Shown piece after piece: positions 9,201 through 26,045 of a DNA stretch of 26,714 nucleotides (position 1 is the first letter of the stretch; each line of letters starts with the position of its first letter). The translations under genes and the position numbers were made by a program. Under the pieces are notes generated by a model that did not search any database, was not told the DNA's origin, and worked only from the letters and a program-made list of their open reading frames with translations. Source of the DNA: Candidatus Thorarchaeota archaeon (GTDB lineage: Archaea; Asgardarchaeota; Thorarchaeia; Thorarchaeales; Thorarchaeaceae). Location of the stretch: NCBI GenBank assembly GCA_029858305.1, contig JAOUFI010000027.1:1-26714 (forward strand). The letters are read 5' to 3'.

Positions 9201-12200
9201 CCAATTTGTAGAACTGAAGTACCAGTTTGGGTTGAGCCACTATAAAGGGCATTACCCCTCTCAATTCCGTCGATGTAAAGAAGCAAATTGCCACTAATGG
9301 AATTCGCTACTCCAACAACATGATGCCAACTACCATCATTTACAAGGCTAAATGATGCAGTCACACTCTGAGTGTTGTCGACATAAAATGCCAGAGTTGA
9401 ACTATCCAATTTACCCAACCAGTAATTTCGATGTCCCACGTCTCCCCATTTTGCAATTATCGTATCTGATGTAGGATCCGTGTTATTTGTCCGAATCCAT
9501 ACTTCCACTAGAATGTCTGATTGAAGCGAAAGTGAAGAAGAGTGAGGAGTTTCGATTCTTTCGTTGGTAGCCTCACCATTGAATTCAGAGCATCTGTATA
9601 TTTTGCCTGATTGAAGTGATGGTTCAGAACCGATAGGTAAGCCCAGGCCATGGTTGTTATTTGCTGTGCTATCATAAATAGTACCAGATGGATCCTCACT
9701 AAGATGCCAAACAGCAGCATATGAAGTATCCCAGACACCTGACGGATTCTCATAACTTGCTGAACTAGAATCACCGTAGTACATTGAAAATACAGTATCA
9801 GCAGAAGAAGAGAGGTCCAAACGTACCCACGCGATTAGATGTGCGTGTGAGGAATTGTACATTTGCTCAAATAGCTCAATCTCATGAGGGAGTATCCATC
9901 CATCTCGCACAAATACAATGTCATCGCCGTCTGCTTGAACATCAAAACGGAGGTCTTTATCGTAGAGCTCGATGAGAACTGGAAATCCGTTGAGGTCTGA
10001 AACTACCTTTGTGTGGTCGATGCTGATGTCTTTCTTGTATATAAAATCAAATGGAATTTCTTTTGGAATGATGACCTCCTGTTCAATTCCCAAGGAGTAG
10101 AAGCTAGATGGGTCAAACTGATTATTATACTCTGTAAGTATCCATTGTGAGGTGATTGGATCACTAAGAACTCGAACTTCGTCGAGTTGCGCTCTTGCAA
10201 AAAGATTGGGTGCTCCAGCATTATCGTAGTTGTCGCATGCTGCAATTAGAAACGGCTCCACAGAGTTGATACTTCCGTATCCCGTAATGTCAACAGGCGA
10301 AGTTGGCACCTCGGAACCATCGATGTATAGATGAAGCCAGCTTCCACTTCTTACCATGACTGCGTAATGCCACAGGCCATTATTCAACGTTGATGCTGAA
10401 TATATAGTGATTTTCCCGGGCGTGACTGAATTATCATCAATTTCAGCTTTTACTGTTCCTGAGCTCGTGACTGATAGCATGTATCTGTATGCATCAGTCC
10501 CGATAGCACCTTTGATAGCTAGTGGTATATCCAAATCTGTCGTGGCGAACCACAAGCTCATTGCTAAATCATTGTAGCCAACTGCAAGCGAAATAGTATC
10601 TCCGCAGTCCACATAGTCATTCGAACCATCAAAGTCGAGGGCATTGCCTATATGACCAATCACTCGGTCACTCTGGGTCATGGATCCAAATGTGGTCCCA
10701 TCATTGCTATTGTAAGTACTATCCGTGACTTGTGGGGCTGGTAATGCACCTGAAGGATCGTTCCCTAGGTGCCATACGCCTTGATACTGATTTCGCCAGA
10801 CTTCCAAAGGATCCTCTTGGCTTCCCATAGTGGGATTCGCGTAATACATAGTGACTATCGTATCAAAACTAGAGGAGAGGTCTGTTCTCACCCAAGCGAT
10901 CAAGTGTGCGTGTGTTGCGTTATATTGCTGATCAAATAGCTCTATCTCATGTGGAACACTCCTACCGTTCGAGGTGAACATTATGTCGTCACCGTCTGGC
11001 TGGACATTTGTCTTTAAATCAGAATCATAGATATCAATCAAGACCGGGAAACCTGTAAGATCGGATGCCACTTTGGTGTGATCGATTGTTATGTCCTTCA
11101 TATATCGAAAGTTAGCTATGCCTTCACCAACAGTCAAGAAAAGATCTGGATTTCTTTGATTGTTGTATTCTGTCTTAATCCAAGCATCAGATCTAGCAAC
11201 ACTTGAGATTCGAACCTCATCAACAATTGCATCGAGATACGATGTTCCGCCTGAATCATCCGACCTGCGACCAATTCTGACAGGTCGACTTGGGCTATTC
11301 ATGGATGCTGGAATCCCTGTTGTTACCTCTTCAACTAACTCGCCATTCAGGTAGAATCTTGCATAAGATGACGGACAGAAAACCCCCACTACTTGATACC
11401 ATTGACCCGTGTCAACACGCTCATAACCTGCGATGTTGGTGTTTATGCCATCCGGACTATATCGAAACATGACCCATCCAGCAGGGCTAATTGAGGGGTC
11501 GTCGTCAAAACTGAGATCCCATCCACGATAGTTTGCTTCGCCAGATTTTACTACAAGATAGTCGTTATCAATGAAATCCGCCTTGAACCACGCTTCGACT
11601 GTGAAGGCGCCTGTCATTTGCAATGCTGAAGGATTACCAAAATCGACATAGTCATTTATCCCATCTAGGTCAATCGCACCACCGAACATACCGCCTACAA
11701 GATCAGTCGATGTCATACTTCCAGAGGTATAACCATGAGTTGTACTGCCAAAGGTTGTTGTATGAATTGTTTCTGGAATCACGCTATCCTTAATCCGTGG
11801 ACGAGGAGCATTGTATCCAGGTGATAACGGAAGGTGCGGCAGGAAATCTGCATAAGTAGAGCTCCATGTGCTCTCAGGATTATCATTGAGGTGCCAGACT
11901 GCAGAATATCCGGTGTCCCAAACACCAACTGCATTTTGTTGATTTCCCAGGTTGTCATCGCCATAAACCATGACAATAGTCGTGTCTACTGTTGATGAAA
12001 GTTCAGGTACTTGGACCCATGCAACTAAATGGGCATGGGTTCCATTGCCTGCTTTATCGAAGAGCTCTATTTCGTGATTAAGCACTTCACCTTTGTACAC
12101 AAATGCTATATCATCACCATCGGATTGAGCATTCCAATGAAGGTCATCATCCCATATATCTACAAGAAGGGGAAAGTCCTGCAGGTTTGAAAAAACCTTT

Positions 12201-13855: not shown

Positions 13856-13958
13856 TTGACTGACTTCCAATTCTAACCACTGAACTTCAACTACGAACAT
13901 TCTATACAACATAAGATAAGATAATTTAGTATATTCAAGTCTTGAAGTTGAATCAGTT

Positions 13959-14597
13959 TTATTCGCTTACAAACTCAATACGGTTAGCGTCAATCAAATC
14001 ATTTAGTGCTGGAGGATTTAAAATCTCAATTTTCTGCCTTTCTCTTGATGTCAATCGTGCGCCTTCTGGTAAGATGAGAGAAAAGAGTGAAGCACACATG
14101 AAAAGAGGTGTCAAGTCGAGGCGCTTGATTGGATTACCTAGAAGGTTTAGCTCCTCAAGTCTAGAACATCTGGAAATTGGTTTCAGGTCTAGAACCATAA
14201 GCCGGTTTTCCATCAGATTAAATGACGTGAGGCTCTTGCAGTTAGATAATGGATTAAGTTCAATCCTAAGTATCTGATTGAAACTCAGATCCAACACCTC
14301 AAGATTGGGGCAGTAACTTATCGGATTTAAATCTAGAATTCTCATGTTATTATGATCAAGCTTTAGTTTACGTATTGAGGGACAAAATGCTAACACACTT
14401 AAATCAATCAACATGAATTCGTTTCCACTCAAATCTAGTTCTTCTAGGCCCTCAACACTATCTAGCACACTAAGGTCAATAGCAACAATCGATTTGTTTG
14501 ACAAATCCACCACAGTCGAACCAGAATCTATCGGCAATTTTTCTGATCTTCCATTTGATAGAGTTGCTTGAAGTTCTATCAAGCTCAAAGGACTCAC
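13959..14597 (-). CDS. Leucine-rich repeat protein (24-aa LRRs, ~6 repeats), cytoplasmic
   Basis: There is a regular 24-aa period LxxLxLxxNxxxxxDLxPLxxCxx (LDLSGNEFMLIDLSVLAFCPSIRK / LKLDHNNMRILDLNPISYCPNLEV / LDLSFNQILRIELNPLSNCKSLTS). No signal peptide. The real start may be the TTG at 14588, 5 nt after a GGTGA SD-like motif. Confidence 0.9.
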   Translation of the reverse strand: MSPLSLIELQATLSNGRSEKLPIDSGSTVVDLSNKSIVAIDLSVLDSVEGLEELDLSGNEFMLIDLSVLAFCPSIRKLKLDHNNMRILDLNPISYCPNLEVLDLSFNQILRIELNPLSNCKSLTSFNLMENRLMVLDLKPISRCSRLEELNLLGNPIKRLDLTPLFMCASLFSLILPEGARLTSRERQKIEILNPPALNDLIDANRIEFVSE

Positions 14598-14874
14598 CTA
14601 CAATATGCTTTCTTTTAGTCAGTTAGTAGTACTGTATCTCTAAACACTTCAATATTTAGCACTTCTCTGAATACAGTGGGCAAATATTCTTTTGCGAATC
14701 ATTCTGCACCATTTTCTATACTATATTGTACTGCTATTTCACTTTGTATGCCCTCAACCAAGCAAAAAATCTCATTTTATTACCCCGAAATATGTATACG
14801 AATGTTTAATATGCAAATATATTCATTAATAATATGTTATATCTTTCGAGAAAAGAGGCGTGGTTGTCAAGAAA

Positions 14875-16125
14875 ATGCAAATCCCAGGAACAAACTTGGA
14901 GCTTACCTCCAAGGTTGACCGAGTGTATATTGCACATGAAGGCGTAATCAAGAAAGTAAAGTACACCGGTAGGTCTTTCAAAGACGTCATGGAGGAAGTT
15001 CAACGATTTGCCTATCTTAGAGGATTTAATGTTCCGATCACCATTCTCAAGTTCATTCTGAAGAGAATAGGTCTTCCGGAAGTCGATCGAATTCCCGGAG
15101 AAGACCAGTTAACGAAGGAAGACTTACTGGAGCTCTCAAGAGCACTTACGGCTCTTGACTCCCTGAAGGATGAGTTTCTATCACCCTTCCGTACAACTGT
15201 TGTACCTGATGAAATCAAGAAGGGCTTGATTGCTGAATCACTTGGCATGGAAGACCTCACACCAGAGATTCATGTCAAGGAGAAACAGAATATTTGGGAC
15301 CTACCCCTAAGCGAAGAGGTCACTGAGCTAATATACTCGTTCCACGCAGAGAATATTCCTGTGAGTACTCCAACACCAAGGACCCAATCAGAATCTGAGC
15401 CTGCATCAAGCTCAGTGAAGTTCATTTGGGATGACGCTGATGCGGTTGAGCAAATAGCGAATCTCAATCCAGATGAACAAGCTCCTGCTGAGCTAGACTC
15501 TGAACTCCTCGAACTGAAAGTTCTCTTCCTTGGAGAACGTGGAGTTGGGATAAGCAGTATTCTCTTTGAATGTAATCTGAAGTCAGCCAATGAAATAGCT
15601 GCTCAGAGTTCATCAGAAATCCAGACATCAGCTCATAACAATACAGTCAAATTCGATGACAAGAATGTAAGACTTGATGCATGGACCTTTCCACAGGGTC
15701 TAGAAACTAAAAAACCAAAAACAGAGTTCTATACAGGTTCTGGAATTGTTGTACTTGTCTATTCAGTAGCTGACAGATGGAGTTATGATAGTCTTGACTT
15801 CTGGGTACGTGAAGTCTCTAATACGTTCCTAATACCTCCGCCTATCATAGTCGTTGGAAATAAGACCGATTTGCGGGATCATCCTGTCTTCGATGATGAG
15901 GATGAACTAGATACCCCTGTTACCACCGAAGAAGCTCAGGAGTTCTGCGATCAGATTGGAAAGAGGATTGGAGGAAACGGTCAATCACATCCGGTCTTTT
16001 TCATGGAAACTTCAAGTGTTACTGGTCAAGGTATCTCAAATCTGCTTGAAAAGATCATTGAGTTCTGGTTGACAAACGAGAGACCCAGCATGCCCGCAGT
16101 CGAGGAGCATGTTCCTCTCCCATAG
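14875..16125 (+). CDS. Ras/Rab-superfamily small GTPase-like domain with ~210-aa N-terminal extension; probable pseudo-GTPase
   Basis: The C-terminal domain has LKVLFLGERGVGISS (G1-like, Lys->Ile), IVVLVYSVADRWSYDSLDFW (Rab/Ras beta4-alpha3), IIVVGNKTDL (G4) and FMETSSVTGQGI (G5). I prefer the ATG at 14875 over the GTG at 14860. Confidence 0.85.
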   Translation: MQIPGTNLELTSKVDRVYIAHEGVIKKVKYTGRSFKDVMEEVQRFAYLRGFNVPITILKFILKRIGLPEVDRIPGEDQLTKEDLLELSRALTALDSLKDEFLSPFRTTVVPDEIKKGLIAESLGMEDLTPEIHVKEKQNIWDLPLSEEVTELIYSFHAENIPVSTPTPRTQSESEPASSSVKFIWDDADAVEQIANLNPDEQAPAELDSELLELKVLFLGERGVGISSILFECNLKSANEIAAQSSSEIQTSAHNNTVKFDDKNVRLDAWTFPQGLETKKPKTEFYTGSGIVVLVYSVADRWSYDSLDFWVREVSNTFLIPPPIIVVGNKTDLRDHPVFDDEDELDTPVTTEEAQEFCDQIGKRIGGNGQSHPVFFMETSSVTGQGISNLLEKIIEFWLTNERPSMPAVEEHVPLP

Positions 16126-16528: not shown

Positions 16529-16608
16529 ACCTTCCCATAATGAGTCTCTCCAAAAGCCTCATAATCTACCACGCTCCGATTGATAGTAATCAGATTGAGG
16601 CGTATCAA

Positions 16609-17967
16609 ATGGACTACTATAAAGCAGCAGGTGTTGTACCAATTGGCAAAGACCGCCGTACTCACTTTAGCAATCAAATAACACCAGAACTTGCAGACAC
16701 TCCAGTCGTACTTATGGGCTGGGCTCACATCCTGCGTGATAAGGGAAAGATCAAGTTTCTTATTTTACGAGATGAACACGGGACTGTTCAAATTACTATG
16801 CCGCAGAAGAAGGTCTCTGAGGAGGTTTTCGATGTAGCTGGTCAGCTAAAACCTGAGTGTGCGGTAGCTGTGCATGGAAAAGTTGTTGCTTCAGAACAGG
16901 CACCTAATGGAGTCGAAGTGATACCAACGAGAATTAGCATTTTGAATACTGCTGATCGCCTTCCCATCGATGTTGTTGAGGGTAAGGTTGACATTGATTT
17001 GGATACACGCCTTAATCATCGTATACTCGATCTCAGAAAACCAACAATTAACGCAATCTTCAGGGTTCAGCATAGTCTAGTACGTTATGCCAGAGAGTTT
17101 CTTGAAAAGAACGATTTTGTTGAGATACACACCCCAAAGCTTGTCGCGGAAGCCACTGAAGGTGGTGCCAACCTCTTTGAGGTGAAGTATTTTGAGAGAA
17201 AGGCATACCTTGCTCAGAGTCCACAGTTCTACAAGCAACTGATGCTTCTAGCGGGATTTGGTAGGGTCTTTGAGATTGCTCCTGTCTTCAGAGCCGAGAA
17301 ACACAACACACGCCGCCATGTCAATGAGTATACCTCATTTGATTTTGAAATGGCTTGGATAAGTGGAGTAGAGGATGTCATGAAAATGGAAGAAAAAATG
17401 CTCAACTACTCCTTCGAAAAGACAAAGAAAGCTGCTGCCCAAGAGCTTGAGCTTCTTAATGTGGACCTTATAGTTCCCAAAGTGCCTTTCAAGAGGGTAA
17501 AGTATGTTGAAGCGATTGATCTCCTAAATAGTGCAGGGAAAGAGTTGAAAATCACTGATGATCTTGATCCGGAGTGCGAACAGCTTCTAGGTGGGCTGTT
17601 TCCTGAGAAATTTGGAACAGATATGGTCTTTATCACACATTATCCTTTGGAACTTCGACCAGCTTATACTATGCCAAGTATGACCGATGAAGGTATGACT
17701 GAGAGTTTTGACCTCACTTACAAAGGAATGGAGATCACGACAGGCAGTCAAAGAATACATCTCTATGACCTTCTAGTAGAACGCTTCAAAGCGAAAGGCT
17801 TCAATCCGTTGGATTTCAGTTTCTATTTGGATCCCTTCAAGTATGGAGCACCTCCACACGGAGGATTAGGTCTTGGTGTTGAACGATTAACAATGCAAAT
17901 ACTTGGTATTGAGAACATACGAGAGGCTACATTACTCCCACGAGACAGAGACCGGCTTACGCCCTAG
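16609..17967 (+). CDS. aspS: Aspartyl-tRNA synthetase, archaeal type, probably non-discriminating (Asp/Asn)
   Basis: It has an OB-fold N-terminus (GWAHILRDKGKIKFLILRD), the AspRS signature YLAQSPQFYKQ, motif 2 FRAEKHNTRRHVNEYTSFDFE and motif 3 PPHGGLGLGVERL. The ORF is open from the ATG at 16540. The ATG at 16609 is closer to the usual length. Confidence 0.96.
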   Translation: MDYYKAAGVVPIGKDRRTHFSNQITPELADTPVVLMGWAHILRDKGKIKFLILRDEHGTVQITMPQKKVSEEVFDVAGQLKPECAVAVHGKVVASEQAPNGVEVIPTRISILNTADRLPIDVVEGKVDIDLDTRLNHRILDLRKPTINAIFRVQHSLVRYAREFLEKNDFVEIHTPKLVAEATEGGANLFEVKYFERKAYLAQSPQFYKQLMLLAGFGRVFEIAPVFRAEKHNTRRHVNEYTSFDFEMAWISGVEDVMKMEEKMLNYSFEKTKKAAAQELELLNVDLIVPKVPFKRVKYVEAIDLLNSAGKELKITDDLDPECEQLLGGLFPEKFGTDMVFITHYPLELRPAYTMPSMTDEGMTESFDLTYKGMEITTGSQRIHLYDLLVERFKAKGFNPLDFSFYLDPFKYGAPPHGGLGLGVERLTMQILGIENIREATLLPRDRDRLTP

Positions 17968-18009: not shown

Positions 18010-18822
18010 ATGAGTCTTGTCAGCTATACGCAGACATTCAGAATAGAGAAGGAACTATCATCAATGCAGGAGCGACTTGAAACAGAACTGTATGCCTCCA
18101 TTGCGACTCTTGACCAGTTGAAGAAACTATATGACCTTGGCTCAGTCGATATAGGGTCATTTCAGCGAGAATCACAAGCTCTCCTACAGGAGGTACGTAA
18201 CCATATTGATGATTTGAAACGCATTGGATTAGATATAGGTGGATTCTTTGCTGGAGAACGGATTTCGGAATGTTTCCCAGATGCATCTGAGCTTCTCAGA
18301 CTTCGTGATTATACTCCTGCAAGAACATACCAGGGTATGAATGCTGACCAATACTATGATTACATAGGACTCGCAATACTTGATGTTGCGACAGAGCACG
18401 CCTCAAAAGGTCTAATGGGCCTTGCAGAGCTTATTGTTGAAGTTGTGCGCCGTCTACCTGAAATCAAATCTGTGACTTACAACGACGTGATAGAAGCAGT
18501 AAATCGAGTAGCAGATAATGGACTTATACCAGGCATTCGTACGCTTCGTGGCGGAGTTAAAGTTGTGGAATTGAGACCGCTTGAACTTCGACGTGACCAA
18601 GCTGATGTCGTCAATCTTGCTGCGTCTAAAGGTCACGTATCAATTGAAGATGTAATGATGCAACTCAAATGGTCTGAAGATCATGCACGTCAAGTACTCA
18701 CAAGTCTTGTAGAAACCGGAATGGCTGTTGCAGACATTCGCTTCTCAACAGGAGGAAGATACTACTTTCCCGGTCTTAGGTCTCGAGATAGATCCGAACC
18801 GTCGAATCTGGGAATCTACTGA
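18010..18822 (+). CDS. vps22: ESCRT-I/II fusion: Vps28 N-terminal-like helical domain fused to Vps22/Vps36 (EAP30) tandem winged-helix domain
   Basis: The C-terminal part YYDYIGLAILDV...GLMGLAEL...VTYNDVIEAV...PLELRRDQADVVNLAASKGHVSIEDVMMQLKWSEDHARQVLTSLVETGMAVAD...YYFPGL aligns by eye with the EAP30/SNF8 WH domains. The N-terminal part ELYASIATLDQLKKLYDLGSVDIGSFQRESQALL...FPDASELLR resembles Vps28-N. An alternative start is the ATG at 18064. Confidence 0.85.
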   Translation: MSLVSYTQTFRIEKELSSMQERLETELYASIATLDQLKKLYDLGSVDIGSFQRESQALLQEVRNHIDDLKRIGLDIGGFFAGERISECFPDASELLRLRDYTPARTYQGMNADQYYDYIGLAILDVATEHASKGLMGLAELIVEVVRRLPEIKSVTYNDVIEAVNRVADNGLIPGIRTLRGGVKVVELRPLELRRDQADVVNLAASKGHVSIEDVMMQLKWSEDHARQVLTSLVETGMAVADIRFSTGGRYYFPGLRSRDRSEPSNLGIY

Positions 18823-19553
18823 GTATCTATCAAAATTGCGCCTTTCTTCTTGTCTATCCATTCAGCAAATCCTTTCTCAACCATCAATGCCATCACGATA
18901 TACAGATCATTTTCTGGAAGCTTAGCAAAACTCTCTCTTGATTCTTGTATCACAATGGATTTGACATCAAGTCTGAGTTTTCCTGTTCTTAATGACCAAT
19001 CATATATTTTGTCTGCCCAGTCTTCAAGAGGTTTCCAATAGATTCTAAGTTGACGCTTTCTCTTGTCACTCCATTCTGCAACTTCCTTATCGATCAAAAC
19101 CTGTGCAATCATCTTGAAGGAATCGACCTTGTTCCTGAGGTTTTTGAAGGGAGGTTCACTGATGAATACTGCAAGTGATAAAACATGAACCTCATTCTGT
19201 TCTGCCCACTGAAGTAAATAATCCGACCATTCCTCTGCCCAGAGTGTTTTGTCTTCCTCTCGTGGAGGAATACCATACATCCATTCACTTTCCTCCGGAC
19301 CACCCCAAGCTGGTGTTAATACTATAAATGTCTCAACTTGCTCTTCTGCTTCTGTTTCATTTGCGAGAACTTCTGCACCTTGAACTGCTTTAGATGTGGC
19401 TGGCTTAGTGTCCTCGACAACAACTTCCGGGGTATGGCTTTGTGGTTCAGCTACTAGTGTAGCTTCATCTTGTTGGCTTGCTGCCACAATTTCAGCACTC
19501 TCAGGTTCTTGTGAAGCCTTTTCTCTAGGTTTCTCTTTTCTTTTTTCCTTCAT
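18816..19553 (-). CDS. vps25: ESCRT-II subunit Vps25 with ~75-aa charged, disordered N-terminal extension
   Basis: EEWSDYLLQW...PPFKNL...AEWSDKRKRQLRIYWKPLEDWADKIYDW...F..LPENDL...EKGFAEW matches the Vps25 tandem WH pattern (EWLDK.K...I.WR.PEEW...IY.W). The ATG is at 19553 (TTG at 19559 in the track). It sits directly downstream of vps4. Confidence 0.9.
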   Translation of the reverse strand: MKEKRKEKPREKASQEPESAEIVAASQQDEATLVAEPQSHTPEVVVEDTKPATSKAVQGAEVLANETEAEEQVETFIVLTPAWGGPEESEWMYGIPPREEDKTLWAEEWSDYLLQWAEQNEVHVLSLAVFISEPPFKNLRNKVDSFKMIAQVLIDKEVAEWSDKRKRQLRIYWKPLEDWADKIYDWSLRTGKLRLDVKSIVIQESRESFAKLPENDLYIVMALMVEKGFAEWIDKKKGAILIDTQ

Positions 19554-19562
19554 CCCCAATAT

Positions 19563-20792
19563 TTAGGAACCCTCCGCCCAGTCAATATATCTCCTGACAT
19601 CCTCTGGGGGAGTTGCTGGTCTGATGTTCTCGATAGCACTCAAGAAGTCATCCCGAGAAACAGGTCGGATGTCTAAGATTTCTCTCTCATCGTCCATTCT
19701 TCCTGTGCGTTGAAGGTCCCGTATTGGCTCCATCGCTGCTTCTCGACAGACGATACTAATGTCTCTCCCACTGTACCCCTCAGTTAGATCTGCCATTTCT
19801 TCATAATCGACCGTTGGAGAGACCTCAATATCCTCCATATGAGTTTCAAAGATTACTTTTCTTGCCTCTCTTCCGGGAAGTGGCACATGTATCTTCTTCT
19901 CAAATCTCGATCGAAGCGCAAAGTCCAGTTCCCATGGCAGGTTCGTAGCACCAATAAGAGTAATTCGATCTTCTGGATTACTCCCAAGACCCTGAAGTTC
20001 TGTCAAGAGCTGTGTCTTGAGGCGTCGTTCTCCTCCTACATCATCTCCAGAGCGAGATACTCCAATTGAATCGAGCTCATCAACAAAAATGATAGCAGGT
20101 TGACTCTTTCTAGCTAGTTCAAAGAGACTCATGACAAGACGCTCTGACTCTCCCAACCACTTGCTGACTATGTTTGCTGCAGAGACATTAAAGAATGTAG
20201 CATTAACCTCTGATGCAACCGCCTTAGCTATCAGCGTCTTTCCACAGCCCGCTGGTCCATAGAACAGTATTCCTCTCCAGGGCTGTCGTGCCTTTCCTTT
20301 GAAAAGCTCAGGATGCTTCATGGGTGTAACTATTGCATCATTTATCGCTTGCTTGGCATCTTCAAGCCCAGCAACCTCAGAAAGCTTGATTTTTGGTCGC
20401 TCAGAGATGATTGTATCTGATATCATCTCGTGTAATCTCTTGGTATCTTCATCAACATCTTGCTCCACCTTGGAAGTCTGGCGAACTGATATAGGCTGCG
20501 GAGAACCAACGTCTGATTTTGGCGGCACAACGAGACCATCTACTGGTCCAGCTGTCCTCTTCTTAATGCCAGAAAGAAATCTCACCCTGTCCACGCATTC
20601 CTGAGCGCGGTCGAAGTAATGTTTTCTTATGCTAGGGAGTGAAGCCGAGTTTGAAAGTTTGATGAGTATTTTGCTCGCCTTGAGGTAGAGCTGACAAGCT
20701 TCATTCTTCATCCCTCTCTGATCAAGTTCTATCGCTCTGTCTAGAAGACTCTTGAGCCCTTGGTCCAGTCTATCACTATCCGATCCGGCCAT
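19563..20792 (-). CDS. vps4: Vps4/CdvC AAA+ ATPase with N-terminal MIT domain
   Basis: MIT-like helices (LLDRAIELDQRGMKNEACQLY...YFDRAQEC), PWRGILFYGPAGCGKT (Walker A), SKWLGESERLV (pore loop 1), IIFVDELD (Walker B) and IGATNLPWELDFALRSRFEKKIHVPLP (SRH/Arg finger). Confidence 0.96.
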   Translation of the reverse strand: MAGSDSDRLDQGLKSLLDRAIELDQRGMKNEACQLYLKASKILIKLSNSASLPSIRKHYFDRAQECVDRVRFLSGIKKRTAGPVDGLVVPPKSDVGSPQPISVRQTSKVEQDVDEDTKRLHEMISDTIISERPKIKLSEVAGLEDAKQAINDAIVTPMKHPELFKGKARQPWRGILFYGPAGCGKTLIAKAVASEVNATFFNVSAANIVSKWLGESERLVMSLFELARKSQPAIIFVDELDSIGVSRSGDDVGGERRLKTQLLTELQGLGSNPEDRITLIGATNLPWELDFALRSRFEKKIHVPLPGREARKVIFETHMEDIEVSPTVDYEEMADLTEGYSGRDISIVCREAAMEPIRDLQRTGRMDDEREILDIRPVSRDDFLSAIENIRPATPPEDVRRYIDWAEGS

Positions 20793-20822
20793 GCGCGTTC
20801 ATGTGTACATTGTCTGTAGGAT

Positions 20823-20834
20823 GTTAAGACTTTC
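20823..20834 (-). promoter_or_regulatory. Putative BRE-TATA promoter of the vps4-vps25 operon
   Basis: The minus strand reads GAAAGTCTTAAC (purine-rich BRE plus TTAA box) about 30 nt upstream of the vps4 ATG. Confidence 0.45.
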
Positions 20835-20887
20835 TGTGTTGATTACCTGATACTCTCTTAGAGCGCGTTCTTGAGATTGAGGAGCTG

Positions 20888-20899
20888 CGAAGGTTTAAA
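20888..20899 (+). promoter_or_regulatory. Putative BRE-TATA promoter of the ESCRT-III gene
   Basis: CGAAGGTTTAAA (BRE-like plus TTTAAA) lies in the divergent intergenic region. An SD-like GGTGA at 20945-20949 sits 5 nt before the TTG at 20955. Confidence 0.5.
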
Positions 20900-20945
20900 C
20901 GAATAGTCCGTAATCAAAGACCTGAGCTGGTACTTAAGAAAAAGG

Positions 20946-21563
20946 GTGAAATCTTTGGCTTCAATTAGAAAGGCATTTGCGTGGGGAAAGAAGAAACCTG
21001 ATGTTGGCGAGATTTCTAGTCGCCTGAGGATACTAAGCAAACAGCTTGCTCGACAGAGAAATAAACTTGAGAAAGAGGAACGTGACACAAGAGCTCGGGC
21101 TGTACGAGCACGGAAAGCTGGGCAAGCAGATGCATACCAAACATATGCGACTGAGATGATTCGTTTCAGACGCTACGCGCTCTCTGTTGACAAGTCCCGG
21201 CTTCAAATATTGAAGATACTTGCACATCTAAACCGAGCACAGACATCTGCTAAGACCTCACTAGCACTTCAAGAAGTAGCCAAAATTCTAGGTATGCTGG
21301 GCGATTCTACTGATGCTTCCAAGGTTGTAGCTAATGTTGATGAGATTGCTCGAAGACTTGAGGAATTCGAGATTGAAGCGAGTATATCTGATGAAGCGCT
21401 TGATTCCACGATGGAAATTTCTTCTGATGATCTTTCAGCTGCAATGCAGGAAATAGACATAGAAGCTGGTCTTGCAGATGCCTCCTCGGTTAAGAGACCC
21501 TTGGGCGAGATTGAGTCTTTGGAAGACGATATCAAGTCATTAGAGCGGGAACTGGGCATTTAG
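20946..21563 (+). CDS. ESCRT-III (Snf7 family) protein, Vps2/Vps24/Vps46 (CHMP1-3)-like class
   Basis: It has a basic N-terminal helical hairpin (LRILSKQLARQRNKLEKEERDTRARAVRARKAGQADAYQTYATEMIRFRR, like CHMP1 ...ARVYAENAIRKK), an acidic C-half, an N-terminal amphipathic ASIRKAFAWG and a C-terminal MIM1-like helix ESLEDDIKSLERELGI. It is divergent from vps4. The probable start is the TTG at 20955. Confidence 0.92.
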   Translation: MKSLASIRKAFAWGKKKPDVGEISSRLRILSKQLARQRNKLEKEERDTRARAVRARKAGQADAYQTYATEMIRFRRYALSVDKSRLQILKILAHLNRAQTSAKTSLALQEVAKILGMLGDSTDASKVVANVDEIARRLEEFEIEASISDEALDSTMEISSDDLSAAMQEIDIEAGLADASSVKRPLGEIESLEDDIKSLERELGI

Positions 21564-21564
21564 A

Positions 21565-23181
21565 TTACTGCCAAAGGTGCCCTCTAGATTCTGTTGAACG
21601 GCGCTGGATTTCTCTCCTATTCAGGTACGAATTTCTCATGAGATCTTTGTACCTACGAATGAAATCTTCAGTCACTAGACGACCATCCCTTAGTAGATGC
21701 ACAGTATCTCTTATGGCACCATAGATTGATTCTGCATCTCTCTGAAGAACATCAATTGATGCGTTTGGTCGATACTGAGTTTCATATCCGTAACTAGGTT
21801 CAGTACGTCCGACCGTCCTTTCTAAATCCCTTCTGAAGTACTCTGGGGATGAATAACCTGATCCGTATGGAATTCCCTTTGGTTGAACCTGGGGATTGGA
21901 CCACGGTTGATTATTGTATCCAAGATCCGGTTTCAGTGATGGTATTGTTTCATCTTGTCTCTTGTTTGGTGATAGAAGCGAGTAAACCATCCCCTCAATT
22001 TTCAATCTTACATCACTGATACTGACCTCATCCTGTTCGATTTTTCGCACTCTTTGCATATCCGTCTGAACGTATCTCTCAAACTTTCTAGCTATTTCTA
22101 CATAGTCGGGTAGGACCTTCTTTGTTTGGTCTGTACAGGATATTCTTACCTCGCCCTGTTTTAACTTCAGAACTAGCCTTTTCCTGAACCTCCCATCCTC
22201 TTCAATCGATTTCAAGTATAGAAGTGGAAAATCAAAGACTGCTTCAATCTTTTTTCTAACTCTTCCAGTTTCTGCTAAAAATAATAGTCTCTTATTTGTC
22301 AAGTATAATGTTCCCAATGCTTTGTCATTCTTTAGGAAATCACTTCCTGCTACCTTCACATCTGGAAGTGCACAGACAGGTAGCTCCCCGACAGAGAGCT
22401 GGTTGTGTTCATAGAAGTTCGTGAATTGATTCTTGTAGTAATCAAGCCCATCTAACTGTCTCTTGACCTCCTTTAGTGTGATTCTGAGGGGCTCAAGTGC
22501 CTCGTCAACATTTTGCTTATAATAGATACCGAGTTCGGTGATTCTATTAGTTATTCCTTCAATAAATGGAAACTGTGAGGGACTCCATAGAGCGTAGTCG
22601 ACGAAATTCTTTGTTTCAGCAGCCATTCTTCTTGCCACAATCTCTGCTTGACTGCCAATTCGGTTTTTGATTGCTGGCAGCTCCTCTTGGATCGCCTCAA
22701 TCTTTTCTTCCAGCCATTTATAATGGAGGAAATTCGCCATTCTCAATGAAACTAGTAATCGTTTTGTGATACTAAGTTTATTGCTAAACTCGCGAAGTTT
22801 TGTATGTCCATATTGAATTGTCATTATAGCATGTCGCATCTCAAGAGCTAGAGTTCTTCTCTTATCCTCTAAAACAACAACGCGCACTGAATGGCATCTT
22901 GTGCAAATATCAACAGTACGCCTACCTTTGGTTAGATTCTCGGATTTGCACTCAGGACAGCTCTCAAACTTCTCGCCAGGGATGGGTTCTCCCAAAGAGT
23001 GATGACAGTCACCACATACAACATACTCATTCGATCTGTTATCAAGGCAATCTGAGCAGAGTGCCGCTCCGCAGTCTTCACACATGTGAGTCGCCCTATT
23101 GTTCTGGCAGGATTGGCATCGTTCAGATGTAGGCTCTTCTGTCAACTGAGTACCTCCGGTCATCATGTCTTTACGAGGCAT
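21565..23181 (-). CDS. ESCRT-associated multidomain protein: Cys-rich Zn-finger cluster, coiled coil, PH/GRAM-like domain, Pro/Tyr/Gly-rich linker, C-terminal steadiness-box (Vps23/Vps37-like) hairpin
   Basis: Six CxxC pairs in aa 22-96; helical aa ~105-255; ALGTLYLTNKRLLFLAE...FDFPLLYLKSIEE...RLVLKLKQGEVRIS (PH/GRAM/GLUE-like, aa ~262-367); and AIRDTVHLLRDGRLVTEDFIRRYKDLMRNSYLNRREIQR (aa ~489-527), which resembles the TSG101/Vps23 SB. The CDS is certain; the domain calls are by eye. Confidence 0.75.
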   Translation of the reverse strand: MPRKDMMTGGTQLTEEPTSERCQSCQNNRATHMCEDCGAALCSDCLDNRSNEYVVCGDCHHSLGEPIPGEKFESCPECKSENLTKGRRTVDICTRCHSVRVVVLEDKRRTLALEMRHAIMTIQYGHTKLREFSNKLSITKRLLVSLRMANFLHYKWLEEKIEAIQEELPAIKNRIGSQAEIVARRMAAETKNFVDYALWSPSQFPFIEGITNRITELGIYYKQNVDEALEPLRITLKEVKRQLDGLDYYKNQFTNFYEHNQLSVGELPVCALPDVKVAGSDFLKNDKALGTLYLTNKRLLFLAETGRVRKKIEAVFDFPLLYLKSIEEDGRFRKRLVLKLKQGEVRISCTDQTKKVLPDYVEIARKFERYVQTDMQRVRKIEQDEVSISDVRLKIEGMVYSLLSPNKRQDETIPSLKPDLGYNNQPWSNPQVQPKGIPYGSGYSSPEYFRRDLERTVGRTEPSYGYETQYRPNASIDVLQRDAESIYGAIRDTVHLLRDGRLVTEDFIRRYKDLMRNSYLNRREIQRRSTESRGHLWQ

Positions 23182-23309: not shown

Positions 23310-24695
23310 ATGGAAGACCTTGCACAGATCGCCATTGAAGCAGCCTTGAAGACTGGTGCACGATTTGCGGACGTGAGAATTGAAAATTCCGCTACAACAA
23401 TCATCGAGCTCAATGATGGTGTTTCCAAACAATCTCTTTCATCTCGACTCAAGGGTGCTGGAATTCGAGCATTTATTGATGGTGCATGGGCATTTGCCCA
23501 TACAACAGACTTGACCAAGAGTGGGATGCGAGCAACTGGGGCGTCTGTAGCAAAAATGGCCATCGCTACCAGAAAGAGAGTTTCTGAGAAATTTGAGATT
23601 GAAGGCCCATCAGTTCAAGCGCGATCCTATTACAATGTCAAGAAACCTTTCAGTAAAACTACAATCGAAGAGAAGATGGCATTTGTTAAAGCAATAGATG
23701 ACCAGGCACGGGACTATGATGCTCGGGTATCTTCCACACGTACCATCTATGGAGATCTCTGGACTGAGCTCTATCTTGCTAATTCTCTTGGTACAAATGT
23801 TTACACTCAGAACTCAATTCCACGAATCATCTCTGCTCCAACAGCAAAAGAAGGAACAAACCGACAACGCGTACTCAAATCGCTAGGTGTTCGCGGCGGA
23901 TACGAAATCATGGATAGCGATGAGGCACAGAATATAGGGACAGCTGCTGCTGAACTTGTAATTGAATTACTCTCTTCAGTTTCTGTCAAAGGTGGAGTGT
24001 ATAATGTTGTAATGGATCCAATCCTTAATGGTGTGATGATCCATGAAGCTTTTGGTCATGCAGTCGAGGCTGATAATTGGCCAGCACACGCTACAGTTTT
24101 AGAAGATAAAGTTGGAACCCAAGTTGGTCCGGAGAATCTAAGCATCATCGATGATCCTACGCTTGACGGTATGCGGGGGTCCTATGAGTATGATTGGGAA
24201 GGGACAAAAGCGAAAAAGCGTCTTTTAGTCAAAGAGGGCATCCTAACAGATCTATTACATAGCCTAGAAACTGCGAGCAGACTTAATCTAGAGGCAAACG
24301 GCGCATCAAGGAGCCAATCTTTCATGTATGAGCCACTTCCAAGGATGAGTAATACTTTCATGGAACCTGGGGACTGGGAGGTTGATGAACTAATCCAAGA
24401 TACCAAGAGTGGAATCCTCCTTTGTAGCTTCAACTATGGCTACACTCAAACAGCGAAAGGGCAATTTATGTTTCAAGCAAGTCATGGATATCTGATAGAA
24501 AATGGAGAGAAGGGCCAGATGATAAGAGATGTTTCACTTGCTGGGAATATTCTCGAGGTACTTGCAAAGGTTGATGCGATTGGTAATGACTTCATGCTTG
24601 ATGCAGGAACCTGTGGAAAGAATGGTCAGGCTGTACCTACAATGACTGGCGGCCCCCACGCAAGAATTAGAGAAGTGCCTGTGGGAGGAATGTGA
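23310..24695 (+). CDS. tldD: TldD metalloprotease (catalytic subunit)
   Basis: Zn motif IHEAFGHAVEAD, YDWEG, PRMSNTF, and C-terminal GTCGKNGQAVP (Cys ligand). SD-like GGAG upstream. Confidence 0.95.
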   Translation: MEDLAQIAIEAALKTGARFADVRIENSATTIIELNDGVSKQSLSSRLKGAGIRAFIDGAWAFAHTTDLTKSGMRATGASVAKMAIATRKRVSEKFEIEGPSVQARSYYNVKKPFSKTTIEEKMAFVKAIDDQARDYDARVSSTRTIYGDLWTELYLANSLGTNVYTQNSIPRIISAPTAKEGTNRQRVLKSLGVRGGYEIMDSDEAQNIGTAAAELVIELLSSVSVKGGVYNVVMDPILNGVMIHEAFGHAVEADNWPAHATVLEDKVGTQVGPENLSIIDDPTLDGMRGSYEYDWEGTKAKKRLLVKEGILTDLLHSLETASRLNLEANGASRSQSFMYEPLPRMSNTFMEPGDWEVDELIQDTKSGILLCSFNYGYTQTAKGQFMFQASHGYLIENGEKGQMIRDVSLAGNILEVLAKVDAIGNDFMLDAGTCGKNGQAVPTMTGGPHARIREVPVGGM

Positions 24696-26045
24696 ATGGT
24701 TGATTCTCTTCTTGCTATTGGTGAGAAAGCAGTAAAATTAGCTGAGAAGTTGGGAGCTGACCAAGCTGAGGCCTATTTAGCTCAAAGTAGATCTTTCGAA
24801 ATAGAGGCTGAGAACAATGCTATCAAGGCCGCAAGCGAATCTAGAGATGTTGGCATTGGTATCCGTACAATAATTGACAAGAAGATTGGATTTGCATATG
24901 TTACAACTCTCCAAAGATCTGATGTTGAAGAGGCGGTTGAACATTCAATAAGTCTGGCTAGGGCTTCTATTCCAGATCCTGCGTTTCATTCACTCCCCGA
25001 CTCGCTCTCAAAGTATCATAATGCCATGGGACTCTTTGATAAACAAATCCACGATCTGACTGCAGAGGCGACTGCCGAACTAGTAATCCGAGTTATCGAT
25101 GCTACTAAAGAAGTATTAGATGGTCAAGACTATGCTATTGAAGCCGGAGTTCAGAGTTCGTCTAGTGTAAATGCTATAATAAATTCGCTTGGAATAGCCA
25201 AAACAGAGCCTAGAACATCTATCTCGCTTTACTCCTATCCTATACTGAAACATGATGATGATCAAACTGCGAGTTACGAGTATCAAATATCACGCAGATT
25301 GGATGAGATTGATCCAGAATGGGTTGGCAAGAGTGCAGGGGAACTTACTATAGGATTCCTCCATCCAAAGATAATTGAAGGTGGAGAAATGCCAGTAATA
25401 TTTGCGCCACTCGGTGCAAGTGCTATTCTTGGTCGCGGATTTGCAGATGCAGTAAATGCGGAGGAGGTCCAGATGGGTAGGTCCTACATAGCTGATGCAT
25501 TTGGAGAAAGGATTGCATCAGAAAATCTTGAGATTGTAGATGATGGTCTTCTTCCTAGCGGGATTGGATCGCGTTCTTTTGATGCAGAAGGTTATCCCTC
25601 TCACCAAACTTCGGTAATTGAAGGAGGTGTATTGAAAAGTCTCCTTCACAATTCCTATACCGCTAACAAGGATTGCGTTGATAACACAGGCAATGCAAGT
25701 AGGCCCTCCTATTCAGGATTACCAAGTATCTCGACAACGAACTTTATTGTTTCACCAAGGAATGGTGATATGAACACTTTCATCTCGGAACTTGATAAAG
25801 GCGTGGTGTGTAGGAACACAGGTGATCGACCCAATATGACAACAGGGGACCTTAGTGCGATGATAATCGAAGGTTATTATGTCGAGAATGGTGAAATTAA
25901 ACACCCTCTCAAGAACACATTGATAGGCATAAACATGCGGGATCTTTTGAAGAGAATCAGTCATATTGGAAATGATAGTCGAACTACCTATTCAATGGTT
26001 ACACCTTCTATCGTTATTGAACACGCAAATATCACATCTGGATAG
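24696..26045 (+). CDS. pmbA: PmbA/TldE non-catalytic partner of TldD
   Basis: GADQAEAY, GIGIR, SRSFDAEG, TGNASR and TTGDLS motifs, with no HExxH. It abuts the tldD stop (TGA ATG) and has GGAGG upstream. Confidence 0.93.
   Translation: MVDSLLAIGEKAVKLAEKLGADQAEAYLAQSRSFEIEAENNAIKAASESRDVGIGIRTIIDKKIGFAYVTTLQRSDVEEAVEHSISLARASIPDPAFHSLPDSLSKYHNAMGLFDKQIHDLTAEATAELVIRVIDATKEVLDGQDYAIEAGVQSSSSVNAIINSLGIAKTEPRTSISLYSYPILKHDDDQTASYEYQISRRLDEIDPEWVGKSAGELTIGFLHPKIIEGGEMPVIFAPLGASAILGRGFADAVNAEEVQMGRSYIADAFGERIASENLEIVDDGLLPSGIGSRSFDAEGYPSHQTSVIEGGVLKSLLHNSYTANKDCVDNTGNASRPSYSGLPSISTTNFIVSPRNGDMNTFISELDKGVVCRNTGDRPNMTTGDLSAMIIEGYYVENGEIKHPLKNTLIGINMRDLLKRISHIGNDSRTTYSMVTPSIVIEHANITSG

Follow-up and report, generated by a model that had tools for sequence, protein, structure and literature searches.

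What kind of ESCRT system could operate in an archaeon in which ubiquitin is not found, and how would its parts be connected? The question is raised by five genes at positions 18010-23181 of a 26,714-nucleotide stretch of Thorarchaeota DNA (hereafter, the window), which encode a Vps28N-Vps22 fusion, Vps25, Vps4, ESCRT-III and a protein with the Znr_CC_PH_SB architecture. The original prediction read this cluster as a compact, newly wired ESCRT pathway. The domain identities, the pairing of its two end proteins (as a prediction), the linkage and the lack of ubiquitin matches held up in our analysis, whereas the target assigned to Vps25, the minimality of the pathway and its novelty did not.

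A conserved five-gene locus

All five predicted contiguous ORFs are present, and Pfam searches confirmed their placement between aspS and tldD: on one side lies a class II aspartyl-type tRNA synthetase of the D/K/N group (16540-17967, plus strand; tRNA-synt_2, E = 3.7e-90) and on the other, two TldD/PmbA metallopeptidase genes (23310-26045, plus strand; PmbA_TldD, E = 3e-62 and 3.6e-63). The cluster is not a single operon: its five genes make up four transcription units, closely spaced and alternating in direction. As the proposed conservation of linkage implied, the order and orientation of the five genes are identical in 18 of the 18 same-genus loci fetched, that is, in those of 24 congeneric genomes that carry both end genes on one contig. 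The Thorarchaeota archaeon has, in these five genes, a genuine and strongly conserved membrane-remodelling (ESCRT) locus.

The three inner genes are assigned as follows. Vps25 (18816-19559, minus strand), which starts 3 nt past the vps4 stop, matches the Pfam ESCRT-II family (E = 3.9e-15) over residues 99-195, preceded by about 95 aa of N-terminal extension that is acidic and probably disordered. Vps4 (19563-20792, minus strand) combines an MIT-like N-terminus, an AAA ATPase domain (Pfam AAA, E = 1.3e-38), a lid and Vps4_C (21.4 bits, with a cut-off of 21.3); its MIT match (25 bits) falls under the cut-off of 30, and its NCBIfam CdvC match (E = 3.4e-78), under the cut-off of that model. The ESCRT-III protein (20946-21563, plus strand; Pfam Snf7, E = 1.4e-10) belongs to the Vps2/Vps24/CHMP1 class ('ESCRT-IIIA'), its best solved relatives being CHMP1B (E = 3.9e-8), CHMP2A (2.2e-6) and CHMP3 (1.3e-5), with weaker matches to Snf7 (0.023) and Heimdall ESCRT-IIIB (0.056). 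The genome-wide search for a Vps20/Snf7-class protein did recover a gene of the Snf7/Vps20/ESCRT-IIIB class, on a different contig and unlinked to the cluster, and with these class assignments the claim that Vps25 nucleates the ESCRT-III of the locus is not supported. Excerpts of published yeast two-hybrid data have Asgard Vps25 binding ESCRT-IIIB.

The Vps28N-Vps22 fusion

The longest ORF of the fusion gene (18010-18822, plus strand) encodes 270 aa and matches Pfam EAP30/Vps22 (E = 8.2e-13). To judge from its relatives, translation probably starts at M19 (18064), giving 252 aa, because 15 of 24 aligned orthologues begin at this residue and the stretch upstream of it holds stop codons in several relatives. 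The tandem winged-helix (EAP30) core of Vps22 occupies residues 111-257 (18340-18780, plus strand) according to Pfam, PDB profiles and Foldseek; human SNF8/Vps22 (3cuq_A) is matched at E = 1.6e-15, and the best Foldseek matches are Vps22 chains. Residues 19-98 (18064-18303, plus strand) form a hairpin of the Vps28-N type, as predicted: residues 23-92 share 31% identity with full-length Asgard Vps28 (BLASTP, E = 1e-11), the family profile matches yeast Vps28-N chains in the PDB at E = 0.07-0.11, a level at which profiles alone would make the assignment marginal, and VIA aligns residues 2-98 with 6vme_U (Z 11.2), 2f6m_D (Z 10.3) and 2caz_B (Z 9.5), all below the Z of about 13 advised for helical folds. 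The fusion protein has no match to Pfam VPS28.

A single fused match was found in 20 of the 24 congeners and in G025, which belongs to the only further family sampled from this order, compared to none of 15 genomes outside the order. Both halves found matches in nine non-Thorarchaeal Asgard genomes; in eight of these, vps22 is preceded on its own strand, at 0.6-2.0 kb, by the Vps28-like half and, in the ninth, the two are on different contigs. Most simply, this distribution suggests that the fusion is a derived state of the order: neighbouring vps28 and vps22 genes would have been joined and the C-terminal domain of Vps28 lost.

The Znr_CC_PH_SB adaptor and its predicted partner

At the other end of the locus, the Znr_CC_PH_SB gene (21565-23181, minus strand) encodes 538 aa in its longest ORF, but its start is probably the TTG codon at residue 13 (23145), giving 526 aa. 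Its AF2 model has a mean pLDDT of 82.6, and among its 166 homologues, those with a named source are mostly labelled Thorarchaeota. Pfam returns B-box, DZR, bPH and GRAM, all below threshold. Residues 20-103 (22873-23124, minus strand) contain three Zn-binding sites with 12 conserved cysteines, of which, across 27 sequences, C22, 34, 37, 56, 59, 75, 78, 93 and 96 are invariant and C25, 42 and 45 nearly so; this region weakly matches RING, FYVE, B-box and Zn-ribbon chains. There follow a coiled-coil 'stalk' of three long helices in the AF2 model (104-148, 155-189 and 201-253; residues 104-253; 22423-22872, minus strand) and, at residues 265-371 (22069-22389, minus strand), a PH domain of the GRAM/GLUE type recognized by VIA and Foldseek, the VIA matches being MTMR2 PH-GRAM (Z 12.9, rmsd 2.7, 107 aligned residues, 20% identity) and EAP45/Vps36 GLUE (2hth_B, Z 11.2; 2dx5_A, Z 10.5). 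The steadiness box (SB) predicted at the end of the protein is a hairpin of the Vps23/TSG101 type (residues 476-537; 21571-21756, minus strand; AF2 helices 476-498 and 504-537), whose profile matches yeast Vps23 (2p22_A, E = 4e-6; 2f66_A, 2.8e-5; 2caz_A, 4.4e-5) and TSG101 (6vme_B, 0.0032).

Complex modelling of this SB with the Vps28-N hairpin of the fusion agreed with the proposed pairing, as a prediction, with an ipSAE of 0.79 (0.78-0.82 in three runs) against 0.01 for the best control, a score that gauges likeness rather than binding and may echo recall of the solved Vps23-C:Vps28-N complexes (2F6M, 2CAZ, 2P22, 6VME). Among solved complexes, 58 of 80 reach the mark for pairing, as do 2 of 110 mismatched pairs. 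At least 97% of contacts are shared between the runs, and the partner has a pLDDT of at least 80. The predicted interface involves fusion residues 21-58 and adaptor residues 494-523, including the family-invariant positions A29, A32, T33, L37, E54 and L58 of the fusion and G500 of the adaptor.

Ubiquitin, E2, UEV and Vps28 in the genome and genus

The prediction that no ubiquitin module is present, originally confined to the window, extends to the whole genome and the 24 congeners. Ubiquitin, E2 and UEV families gave no match at E<=0.1 in the 3.04-Mb genome, which is 88.9% complete, so that absences are to be read as 'not found'. Searches for E2 and ubiquitin did match in other Asgard genomes, a positive control; in the home genome, the UEV and E2 searches were run without one. 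Ubiquitin and UQ_con (E2) were each found in 0 of 25 genus genomes compared to 13 of 15 outside the order, and VPS28, in 0 of 25 compared to 12 of 15. Extracts of Hatano et al. 2022 (PMC9192718) and Lu et al. 2023 likewise describe Thorarchaeota as lacking ubiquitin and UEV-Vps23.

A putative pathway and its alternatives

We consider it fairly probable that the five genes are the core ESCRT locus of a ubiquitin-less Thorarchaeota genus, in which the adaptor SB leads into the Vps28N-Vps22 chain. Znr_CC_PH_SB would be a putative membrane- or cargo-proximal adaptor, by virtue of its PH-GRAM/GLUE-like domain and three Zn sites, and its C-terminal Vps23-type hairpin is predicted to pack on the Vps28-N hairpin at the Vps22 N-terminus; the ESCRT-I headpiece contact would therefore lead into ESCRT-II through a peptide bond, in place of the eukaryotic Vps28-CTD:Vps36 contact. 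Data from eukaryotes and those published for Asgard archaea suggest the later steps: Vps22 would bind Vps25, either as a homodimer or together with an unlinked EAP30 paralogue, and Vps25 would seed the unlinked Snf7/ESCRT-IIIB-class protein; the Vps2/24-class ESCRT-III of the locus would join the polymer, and Vps4 would disassemble it.

Such a pathway would not be minimal, contrary to the original prediction: outside the cluster, the genome encodes a conserved second EAP30-type protein of about 780 aa and, on contig C34, a 410-aa protein with an IFT52-GIFT domain (E = 1.1e-14), a coiled coil and a C-terminal hairpin. Vps28N could have this second SB-bearing protein (GIFT-CC-SB) as its real partner or as a further one. 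It is conceivable, although we find it somewhat unlikely, that the hairpin of GIFT-CC-SB joins those of Znr_CC_PH_SB and Vps22 in a three-hairpin headpiece like that of eukaryotes, or that Vps28N-Vps22 is bound in competition by one or the other SB adaptor, the two being alternative sensors of cargo or membrane. The GIFT-CC-SB hairpin is the best non-self match of the adaptor SB profile (E = 0.042 among 31,023 frames) and the only Pfam VPS28 match in the genome (E = 0.03), and residues 289-401 of the protein match a 250-aa frame in genome G037 with a UQ_con/UEV-like domain (E = 7.7e-4); all these hairpin matches are marginal, and the gene lies outside the window. Full-length matches occur in 23 of the 24 congeners, in four of which (G001, G003, G013, G024) a distance of 12-15 kb on one contig separates the gene from the ESCRT cluster, and the Odinarchaeal ESCRT-I is reported, in an extract of Hatano 2022 (PMC9192718), to be a 2:1 Vps23:Vps28 trimer.

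That the main role of the cluster is in cell division or abscission and not in cargo sorting, with Znr_CC_PH_SB as a CdvA-like membrane recruiter of ESCRT, we regard as unlikely. The SB is reported to be homologous to the CdvA hairpin (extracts of Makarova 2024, PMC10936438, and Lu 2023), the G025 adaptor orthologue has a weak Pfam CdvA match (E = 0.014), and a ubiquitin tag is not available; however, an FtsZ division system is probably present because the genome has three tubulin/FtsZ-family genes, two of them strong matches (E = 1e-46 and 2e-43), and, according to Makarova 2024 (PMC10936438), parts resembling ESCRT-I and ESCRT-II are typically those of sorting systems.

The two hairpins could also have separate roles, the Vps28-N hairpin in Vps22 self-association and the SB in dimerisation or stability of the adaptor itself, as the self-interaction of Thorarchaeota Vps22 in yeast two-hybrid assays (Hatano 2022, PMC9192718, in part) and the stabilizing role of the SB in TSG101 (Lu 2023, in part) would allow. 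The predicted heterocomplex (0.79 versus 0.01 for controls), the strict co-location of the two genes and the hairpin types, Vps23 and Vps28, which pair in solved ESCRT-I cores, make this quite unlikely. Replacement of ubiquitin by a SAMP/Urm1-type beta-grasp tag with a ThiF-type E1, for which the Zn fingers or the GLUE-like PH domain would be the reader, is highly improbable: the genome has one ThiF-family E1-like gene (E = 6.7e-67) and mouse EAP45 GLUE (2dx5), a structural neighbour of the adaptor PH domain, binds ubiquitin, but the ThiF match is not diagnostic, given that such genes are present in 12 of 14 control genomes, and the E2, UEV and ubiquitin families were not found.

Comparison with known ESCRT systems

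The wiring had been put forward as the candidate novelty, but the literature already contains each of its elements (Makarova 2024, Hatano 2022, Lu 2023): Vps22 fused to an SB, Znr_CC_PH_SB, and Thorarchaeota without ubiquitin. Makarova et al. (2024, mBio, PMC10936438) describe the Vps22 fusion as cog.002769, 'Vps22#'. In the same paper, Znr_CC_PH_SB (cog.011556), with its membrane-binding PH domain, is considered likely to be an ancestral part of Asgard ESCRT-I, a reading that we share. As described, these have the same architectures as the end genes of the locus, in one case an SB with two winged helices and in the other three Zn ribbons, a coiled coil, a PH domain and an SB, with no substantive difference.

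Among other systems, crenarchaeal CdvA is also a membrane-binding recruiter, with a coiled-coil/hairpin region reported in extracts of Makarova 2024 (PMC10936438) and Lu 2023 to be homologous to the SB; unlike the adaptor, it recruits CdvB directly via a winged helix and has no Zn sites, PH domain or ESCRT-II context. The adaptor resembles Vps36/EAP45 with its GLUE domain and Zn fingers in pairing a GRAM/GLUE-type PH domain with Zn modules, which suggests lipid or cargo recognition, although Pfam yields no GLUE match above threshold at the sequence level. In the adaptor, however, the module resides on an ESCRT-I-like protein (stalk plus SB) rather than on an ESCRT-II winged-helix protein, and the Zn sites are N-terminal rather than inserted in the PH domain. 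The Heimdallarchaeial UEV-Vps23-Vps28 fusion, as excerpted from Hatano et al. 2022 (PMC9192718), likewise merges Asgard ESCRT subunits in one chain; there, two ESCRT-I subunits are joined and the UEV and ubiquitin binding are kept, whereas the Thorarchaeota locus joins the Vps28-N part of ESCRT-I to Vps22 of ESCRT-II, without ubiquitin.

A structural counterpart of the predicted contact is the eukaryotic ESCRT-I headpiece (Vps23-C:Vps28-N:Vps37-C; 2F6M, 2F66, 2CAZ, 2P22, 6VME), with the same two hairpin types and, here, a predicted packing. In contrast to this headpiece, the Vps23-like subunit of the locus has no UEV, and the Vps28-N hairpin continues covalently into Vps22 instead of being followed by a Vps28 C-terminal domain. 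What our analysis adds to the published architectures is that the SB on Vps22 is of the Vps28-N type and that of the adaptor is of the Vps23 type, and that the two are predicted to bind each other.

Gene content and conservation of the ESCRT cluster

The five closely packed open reading frames (ORFs) at 18010-23181 encode a Vps28N-Vps22 fusion protein (18010-18822, plus strand; Pfam EAP30, E = 8.2e-13, residues 111-242), the winged-helix protein Vps25 (18816-19559, minus strand; Pfam ESCRT-II/Vps25, PF05871, E = 3.9e-15, 56.7 bits, cut-off 27), Vps4 (19563-20792, minus strand), an ESCRT-III protein (20946-21563, plus strand; Pfam Snf7, E = 1.4e-10, 41.6 bits) and a 538-aa protein, here called the adaptor (21565-23181, minus strand), for which all Pfam matches (B-box, double-Zn-ribbon, bacterial-PH and GRAM) are sub-threshold. 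In Vps4, the AAA domain is readily recognized (E = 1.3e-38, 132.8 bits), Vps4_C is barely above the cut-off (21.4 vs 21.3 bits), and the N-terminal MIT domain (E = 2.1e-5, 25 bits) falls under the cut-off of 30. The gene directions are +, - -, + and -; vps25 begins 3 nt downstream of the vps4 stop codon, and of the two convergent gene pairs, one overlaps by 7 nt and the other is separated by a 1-nt gap. The cluster is flanked by genes for a class II Asp-type tRNA synthetase (aspS) and two TldD/PmbA proteins. The ORF and Pfam scans thus agree with the five genes and the flanks described in the original prediction.

Both end genes, those of the fusion and the adaptor, were found on one contig, 2.6-3.1 kb apart, in 18 of the 24 other genomes of the genus. 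Gene content, order and orientation of the cluster are identical in all 18 of these loci, and so are the aspS and TldD flanks as far as the contigs reach; the expected synteny is thus borne out. Among the remaining six congeners, three carry the end genes on separate contigs, two lack a detected fusion, and one lacks both. Of 16 more distant Asgard genomes, nine also yielded adaptor relatives, with an ESCRT-III gene nearby in six of these nine loci, and Vps4 and Vps25 in three. Where a source is named, the homologs of the two end genes are almost all labelled Candidatus Thorarchaeota.

Comparison with orthologs suggests that both end genes start later than the longest ORFs. The fusion probably starts at M19, leaving 18010-18063 upstream, and the adaptor probably at the TTG codon 13, with 23146-23181 upstream of the real start; the adaptor orthologs start with MTED..., and stop codons are found upstream in the relatives. 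Stop codon recoding was considered for the adaptor and rejected: the in-frame TAG codons in its orthologs sit upstream of the real start and are an artefact of read-through scoring.

Several other genes in the window deserve mention. An open frame exceeding 4637 aa (2-13912, minus strand) runs past the window end and contains five Laminin_G_3/ConA-like lectin stretches (E = 1.4e-85) as well as DUF2341 and Laminin_G_1/2 matches; given these lectin-like domains, it probably encodes a giant surface or adhesin-like protein. A leucine-rich-repeat protein gene (13959-14597, minus strand; LRR_8, E = 7.9e-16) adjoins a gene for a 421-aa protein (14860-16125, plus strand) that combines a C-terminal Ras/Roc small GTPase half (E = 5.9e-18) with an N-terminus of ~200 aa without assignment. 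The Ras gene stays beside aspS in 8 of the 18 congener loci examined.

The Vps28N-Vps22 fusion and its origin

The C-terminal two thirds of the fusion (270 aa as the longest ORF) correspond to Vps22 (human SNF8, E = 1.6e-15), with the tandem winged-helix EAP30 core present (49 bits vs the Pfam cut-off of 26.8) and Vps22 chains as the top three Foldseek matches. The fusion may bind Vps25, in view of the neighboring vps25 gene and of yeast two-hybrid data published for Asgard archaea. The Pfam models VPS28 and Vps23_core match none of the proteins in the window; these models are too insensitive here, and therefore, family profiles and pairwise comparisons were used. Such sequence comparison identifies the N-terminal ~80 residues of the fusion as a Vps28-N domain, with residues 23-92 aligned to residues 13-82 of a Vps28 from a neighboring Asgard class (31% identity, E = 1e-11). 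The latter is itself a full-length Vps28 (Pfam E = 2.3e-16, covering model positions 2-176 of 188). The profile of the fusion family (24 sequences) retrieves Vps22 chains first, followed by four yeast Vps28-N chains (E = 0.07-0.11). In structural comparison (VIA), residues 2-98 match the human ESCRT-I headpiece (6vme_U, Z 11.2), 2f6m_D (Z 10.3) and Vps28 (2caz_B, Z 9.5), values that fall short of the recommended level for helical folds and serve as corroboration only.

Beyond residue ~100, the fusion continues with the Vps22 winged helices in place of the Vps28 C-terminal domain, a four-helix bundle, which is absent from the fusion and was not found by Pfam search elsewhere in the genome. Because this domain is missing, the fusion cannot be classed as a Vps28, although it carries a Vps28-N domain. 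A profile search detected no further credible copy of the Vps28-N region in the genome (best non-self E = 0.42). The sole Pfam VPS28 match in the genome (E = 0.03, model positions 3-59) is not in the fusion but in the C-terminal hairpin of an unlinked protein with a GIFT domain (see below).

The fusion was searched against 40 relatives: the 24 congeners, the sole sampled genome of another family in the same order (G025) and 15 genomes outside the order. A continuous match was found in 20 of the 24 congeners (in the other four, one match is broken at a contig end, and three genomes show a paralog only) and also in G025, where the fused protein exceeds the Pfam VPS28 cut-off. No continuous match was found in the 15 genomes outside the order; in nine of these, the two halves match separate genes, and in eight of the nine, the match to the Vps28-like half is located on the same strand as vps22, 0.6-2.0 kb upstream. 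This distribution is most simply explained if adjacent vps28 and vps22 genes were joined in this lineage and the Vps28 C-terminal domain was lost along with this. Such a lineage-specific fusion of adjacent genes would be a derived, not an ancestral, state and is probably a secondary simplification.

Domain architecture of the adaptor

The AlphaFold2 (AF2) model of the adaptor, built from a 27-sequence alignment, has a mean pLDDT of 82.6. Residues 20-103 include 12 conserved cysteines, sufficient for three Zn sites; the matches to RING, FYVE, PHD, B-box and Zn-ribbon are weak and mixed, and none of these subtypes was assigned. In the model, three long helices (residues 104-253) precede a PH domain (residues 265-371), and a disordered linker (residues 408-472) connects to a helical hairpin (residues 476-537). 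The nearest solved fold of the PH domain is MTMR2 PH-GRAM (Z 12.9, rmsd 2.7, 107 aligned residues, 20% identity); further close folds (VIA, Foldseek) are Lam6, BBS5 and EAP45/Vps36 GLUE (Z 11.2, 10.5). The top Foldseek matches of the adaptor, DH-PH RhoGEFs, reflect a PH domain beside unrelated helices (TM 0.17-0.23, rmsd ~20 A), and this identity was discarded.

Like Vps23/TSG101, the adaptor ends in a steadiness box (SB) hairpin: a search with its family profile recovers the steadiness box at the C-terminus of yeast Vps23 (E = 4e-6, 2.8e-5 and 4.4e-5) as well as human TSG101 (E = 0.0032) and, weakly, VPS37B (E = 0.19). The N-terminal UEV domain of Vps23/TSG101 is lacking; the Zn sites occupy this position, and no UEV/UQ_con match was found in the genome. 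This combination of three Zn ribbons, a coiled coil, a PH domain and an SB in a single polypeptide is that of the published Znr_CC_PH_SB family (asCOG cog.011556), an assignment that rests on the architecture and the text of Makarova 2024 (PMC10936438). In that work, the family is reported from several Asgard lineages as likely ancestral and a likely ESCRT-I component, with a PH domain expected to be membrane associated; Lu 2023 (bioRxiv 10.1101/2023.07.25.550441) also lists cog.011556 as a steadiness/Vps23 box family.

Predicted pairing of the two hairpins

The proposed wiring, in which the SB hairpin pairs with the Vps28N fused to Vps22, appears plausible. In complex prediction from alignments of adaptor residues 470-538 and of fusion residues 19-110, the ipSAE was 0.79 (runs of 0.78, 0.79 and 0.82), against 0.01 for the best of three controls; the ipSAE mark is attained by 58 of 80 solved complexes vs 2 of 110 mismatched pairs. 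The runs share at least 97% of the contacts, with pLDDT of the partner at least 80, and the predicted interface (adaptor 494-523, fusion 21-58) contains family-invariant positions, among them A29, T33 and L37 of the fusion and G500 of the adaptor. Because Vps23-C:Vps28-N complexes have already been solved, this result may represent recall, and shows likeness to such a complex, not binding. The hairpin pair is small and well defined (about 70 + 90 residues) and would lend itself to biochemical testing. From yeast two-hybrid data, Hatano 2022 (PMC9192718) report a possible interaction of a steadiness-box protein of Thorarchaeota with 'Vps28'. We did not find an explicit statement of a Vps23-SB to Vps28N-Vps22 contact in our searches of the literature; figures or supplements may already show the locus and the hairpin typing.

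ESCRT-III classes and unlinked components

The ESCRT-III protein of the locus is closest to CHMP1B, CHMP2A and CHMP3 (E = 3.9e-8 to 1.3e-5) vs 0.023 for Snf7, which, on sequence similarity, places it in the Vps2/24/46 class, not Snf7/Vps20. The genome search for the latter class was positive: an unlinked Snf7-family gene (contig C75, 8703-9380, plus strand) shows the reverse order of matches, with Heimdall ESCRT-IIIB best (E = 5.3e-8) and Snf7 at 1.1e-5. This gene is flanked by genes for an inositol-monophosphatase family protein and a HAD hydrolase; in G025, two ESCRT-III genes are adjacent to each other, beside the adaptor gene. In eukaryotes, Vps25 nucleates the Snf7-type class of ESCRT-III. 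In Asgard archaea, Vps25 binds the ESCRT-IIIB class in yeast two-hybrid assays, according to Hatano 2022 (PMC9192718). With a Vps2/24-type gene in the locus and the Snf7-type gene on C75, the class engaged by Vps25 is therefore unlinked, and the direct step from Vps25 to the ESCRT-III of the locus in the original prediction is not supported.

Two further unlinked proteins bear on the claim of a minimal five-gene pathway. One is a 780-aa EAP30 paralog (contig C56, 3761-6103, minus strand) in which an N-terminal region without assignment, a coiled coil and a CarboxypepD_reg-like beta domain are followed, at the C-terminus, by a pair of EAP30-like winged helices (phmmer match with the fusion, E = 1.1e-15; Pfam EAP30, E = 0.009 only). 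It has relatives in congeners (frames of ~675-860 aa), in G025 and in another relative, G029, and is a possible second, Vps36-like ESCRT-II arm. The other is the 410-aa GIFT protein (contig C34, 20835-22064, plus strand), in which an IFT52-GIFT domain (E = 1.1e-14) and a coiled coil are joined to a C-terminal SB-like hairpin that is the top non-self match of the adaptor SB profile in the genome (E = 0.042). This protein has full-length matches in 23 of the 24 congeners and is conserved across the sampled Asgard genomes; its tail also has a match in the relative G037, to a Vps23-like frame with a UEV. Neither of the terms GIFT and IFT52 is used in the main text of Makarova 2024 (PMC10936438). 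In four congeners, the GIFT gene lies 12-15 kb from the cluster; in one of them, G001, the distance to vps22 is just ~12 kb, so that the gene of the giant lectin-like frame may be placed otherwise there. With a second EAP30 protein, a second SB protein and a Snf7-class gene all encoded elsewhere in the genome, the system is not a self-contained five-gene minimum.

Search for ubiquitin components and comparison with known ESCRT systems

The absence of a ubiquitin module, previously noticed in the window, extends to the genome (3.04 Mb in 205 contigs, of which the window is contig C168; 88.9% complete), where ubiquitin, UEV and UQ_con produced no match at E<=0.1. Ubiquitin and UQ_con (E2) were each found in 0 of 25 genomes of the genus (this one included), not in G025, and in 13 of the 15 genomes outside the order; for VPS28, the respective counts are 0 of 25, one of one (the fused protein) and 12 of 15. 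The 41 surveyed genomes are incomplete, so these absences mean 'not found'. They agree with the apparent lack of ubiquitin in Thorarchaeota and the lack of UEV-Vps23 in Loki- and Thorarchaeia stated by Hatano 2022 (PMC9192718) and Lu 2023 (10.1101/2023.07.25.550441), respectively. One ThiF-type E1-like gene is present; such genes match in 12 of 14 control genomes. The genome also encodes three tubulin/FtsZ-family proteins (contigs C205, C188 and C174; E = 1.1e-46, 1.7e-43 and 1.4e-20), so that division probably proceeds by FtsZ, without dependence on ESCRT.

The cluster represents an already known system, here seen in one more genome, and is not minimal. The wiring had been put forward as a candidate novelty; however, the components, the architectures and the ubiquitin-less Thorarchaeota have already been published, including an Asgard Vps22 of cog.002769 fused to SB (Makarova 2024, PMC10936438). 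Vps5-BAR-Vps28 fusions are described as frequent in Thorarchaeia by Eme 2023 (PMC10307638); no such fusion was identified in this genome, with neither a PF09325 match nor a Pfam VPS28 match of that kind. What the present analysis adds is limited to the Vps23- and Vps28-typing of the hairpins, the predicted contact, the evidence of derivation from adjacent genes and the inventory of unlinked parts.

Asgard ESCRT offers the best window on the origin of eukaryotic membrane trafficking, and this locus is a clean, conserved ESCRT-I/II/III/Vps4 set working without ubiquitin, in which the fused Vps28N and Vps22 serve as a 'Rosetta stone' that supports direct hand-over from ESCRT-I to ESCRT-II. A joint reading, which we consider rather unlikely as a whole, is that ESCRT-I/II of this order would form one covalently bridged, ubiquitin-independent supercomplex: the Vps23-type adaptor would read membrane lipid via its GRAM/GLUE-like PH domain and three Zn sites, the GIFT/coiled-coil/SB adaptor would supply the third hairpin of a eukaryote-like headpiece on the Vps28-N end of Vps22, and the Vps28 C-terminal domain would have been lost, through gene fusion, in parallel with the entire ubiquitin system. 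If true, the supercomplex would be a natural experiment on which ESCRT contacts exist solely for ubiquitin. Unlike this genome, in which none of the components of a ubiquitin-ESCRT system was found, Loki-, Odin-, Heimdall- and Helarchaeota carry ubiquitin, E2 and UEV-Vps23.
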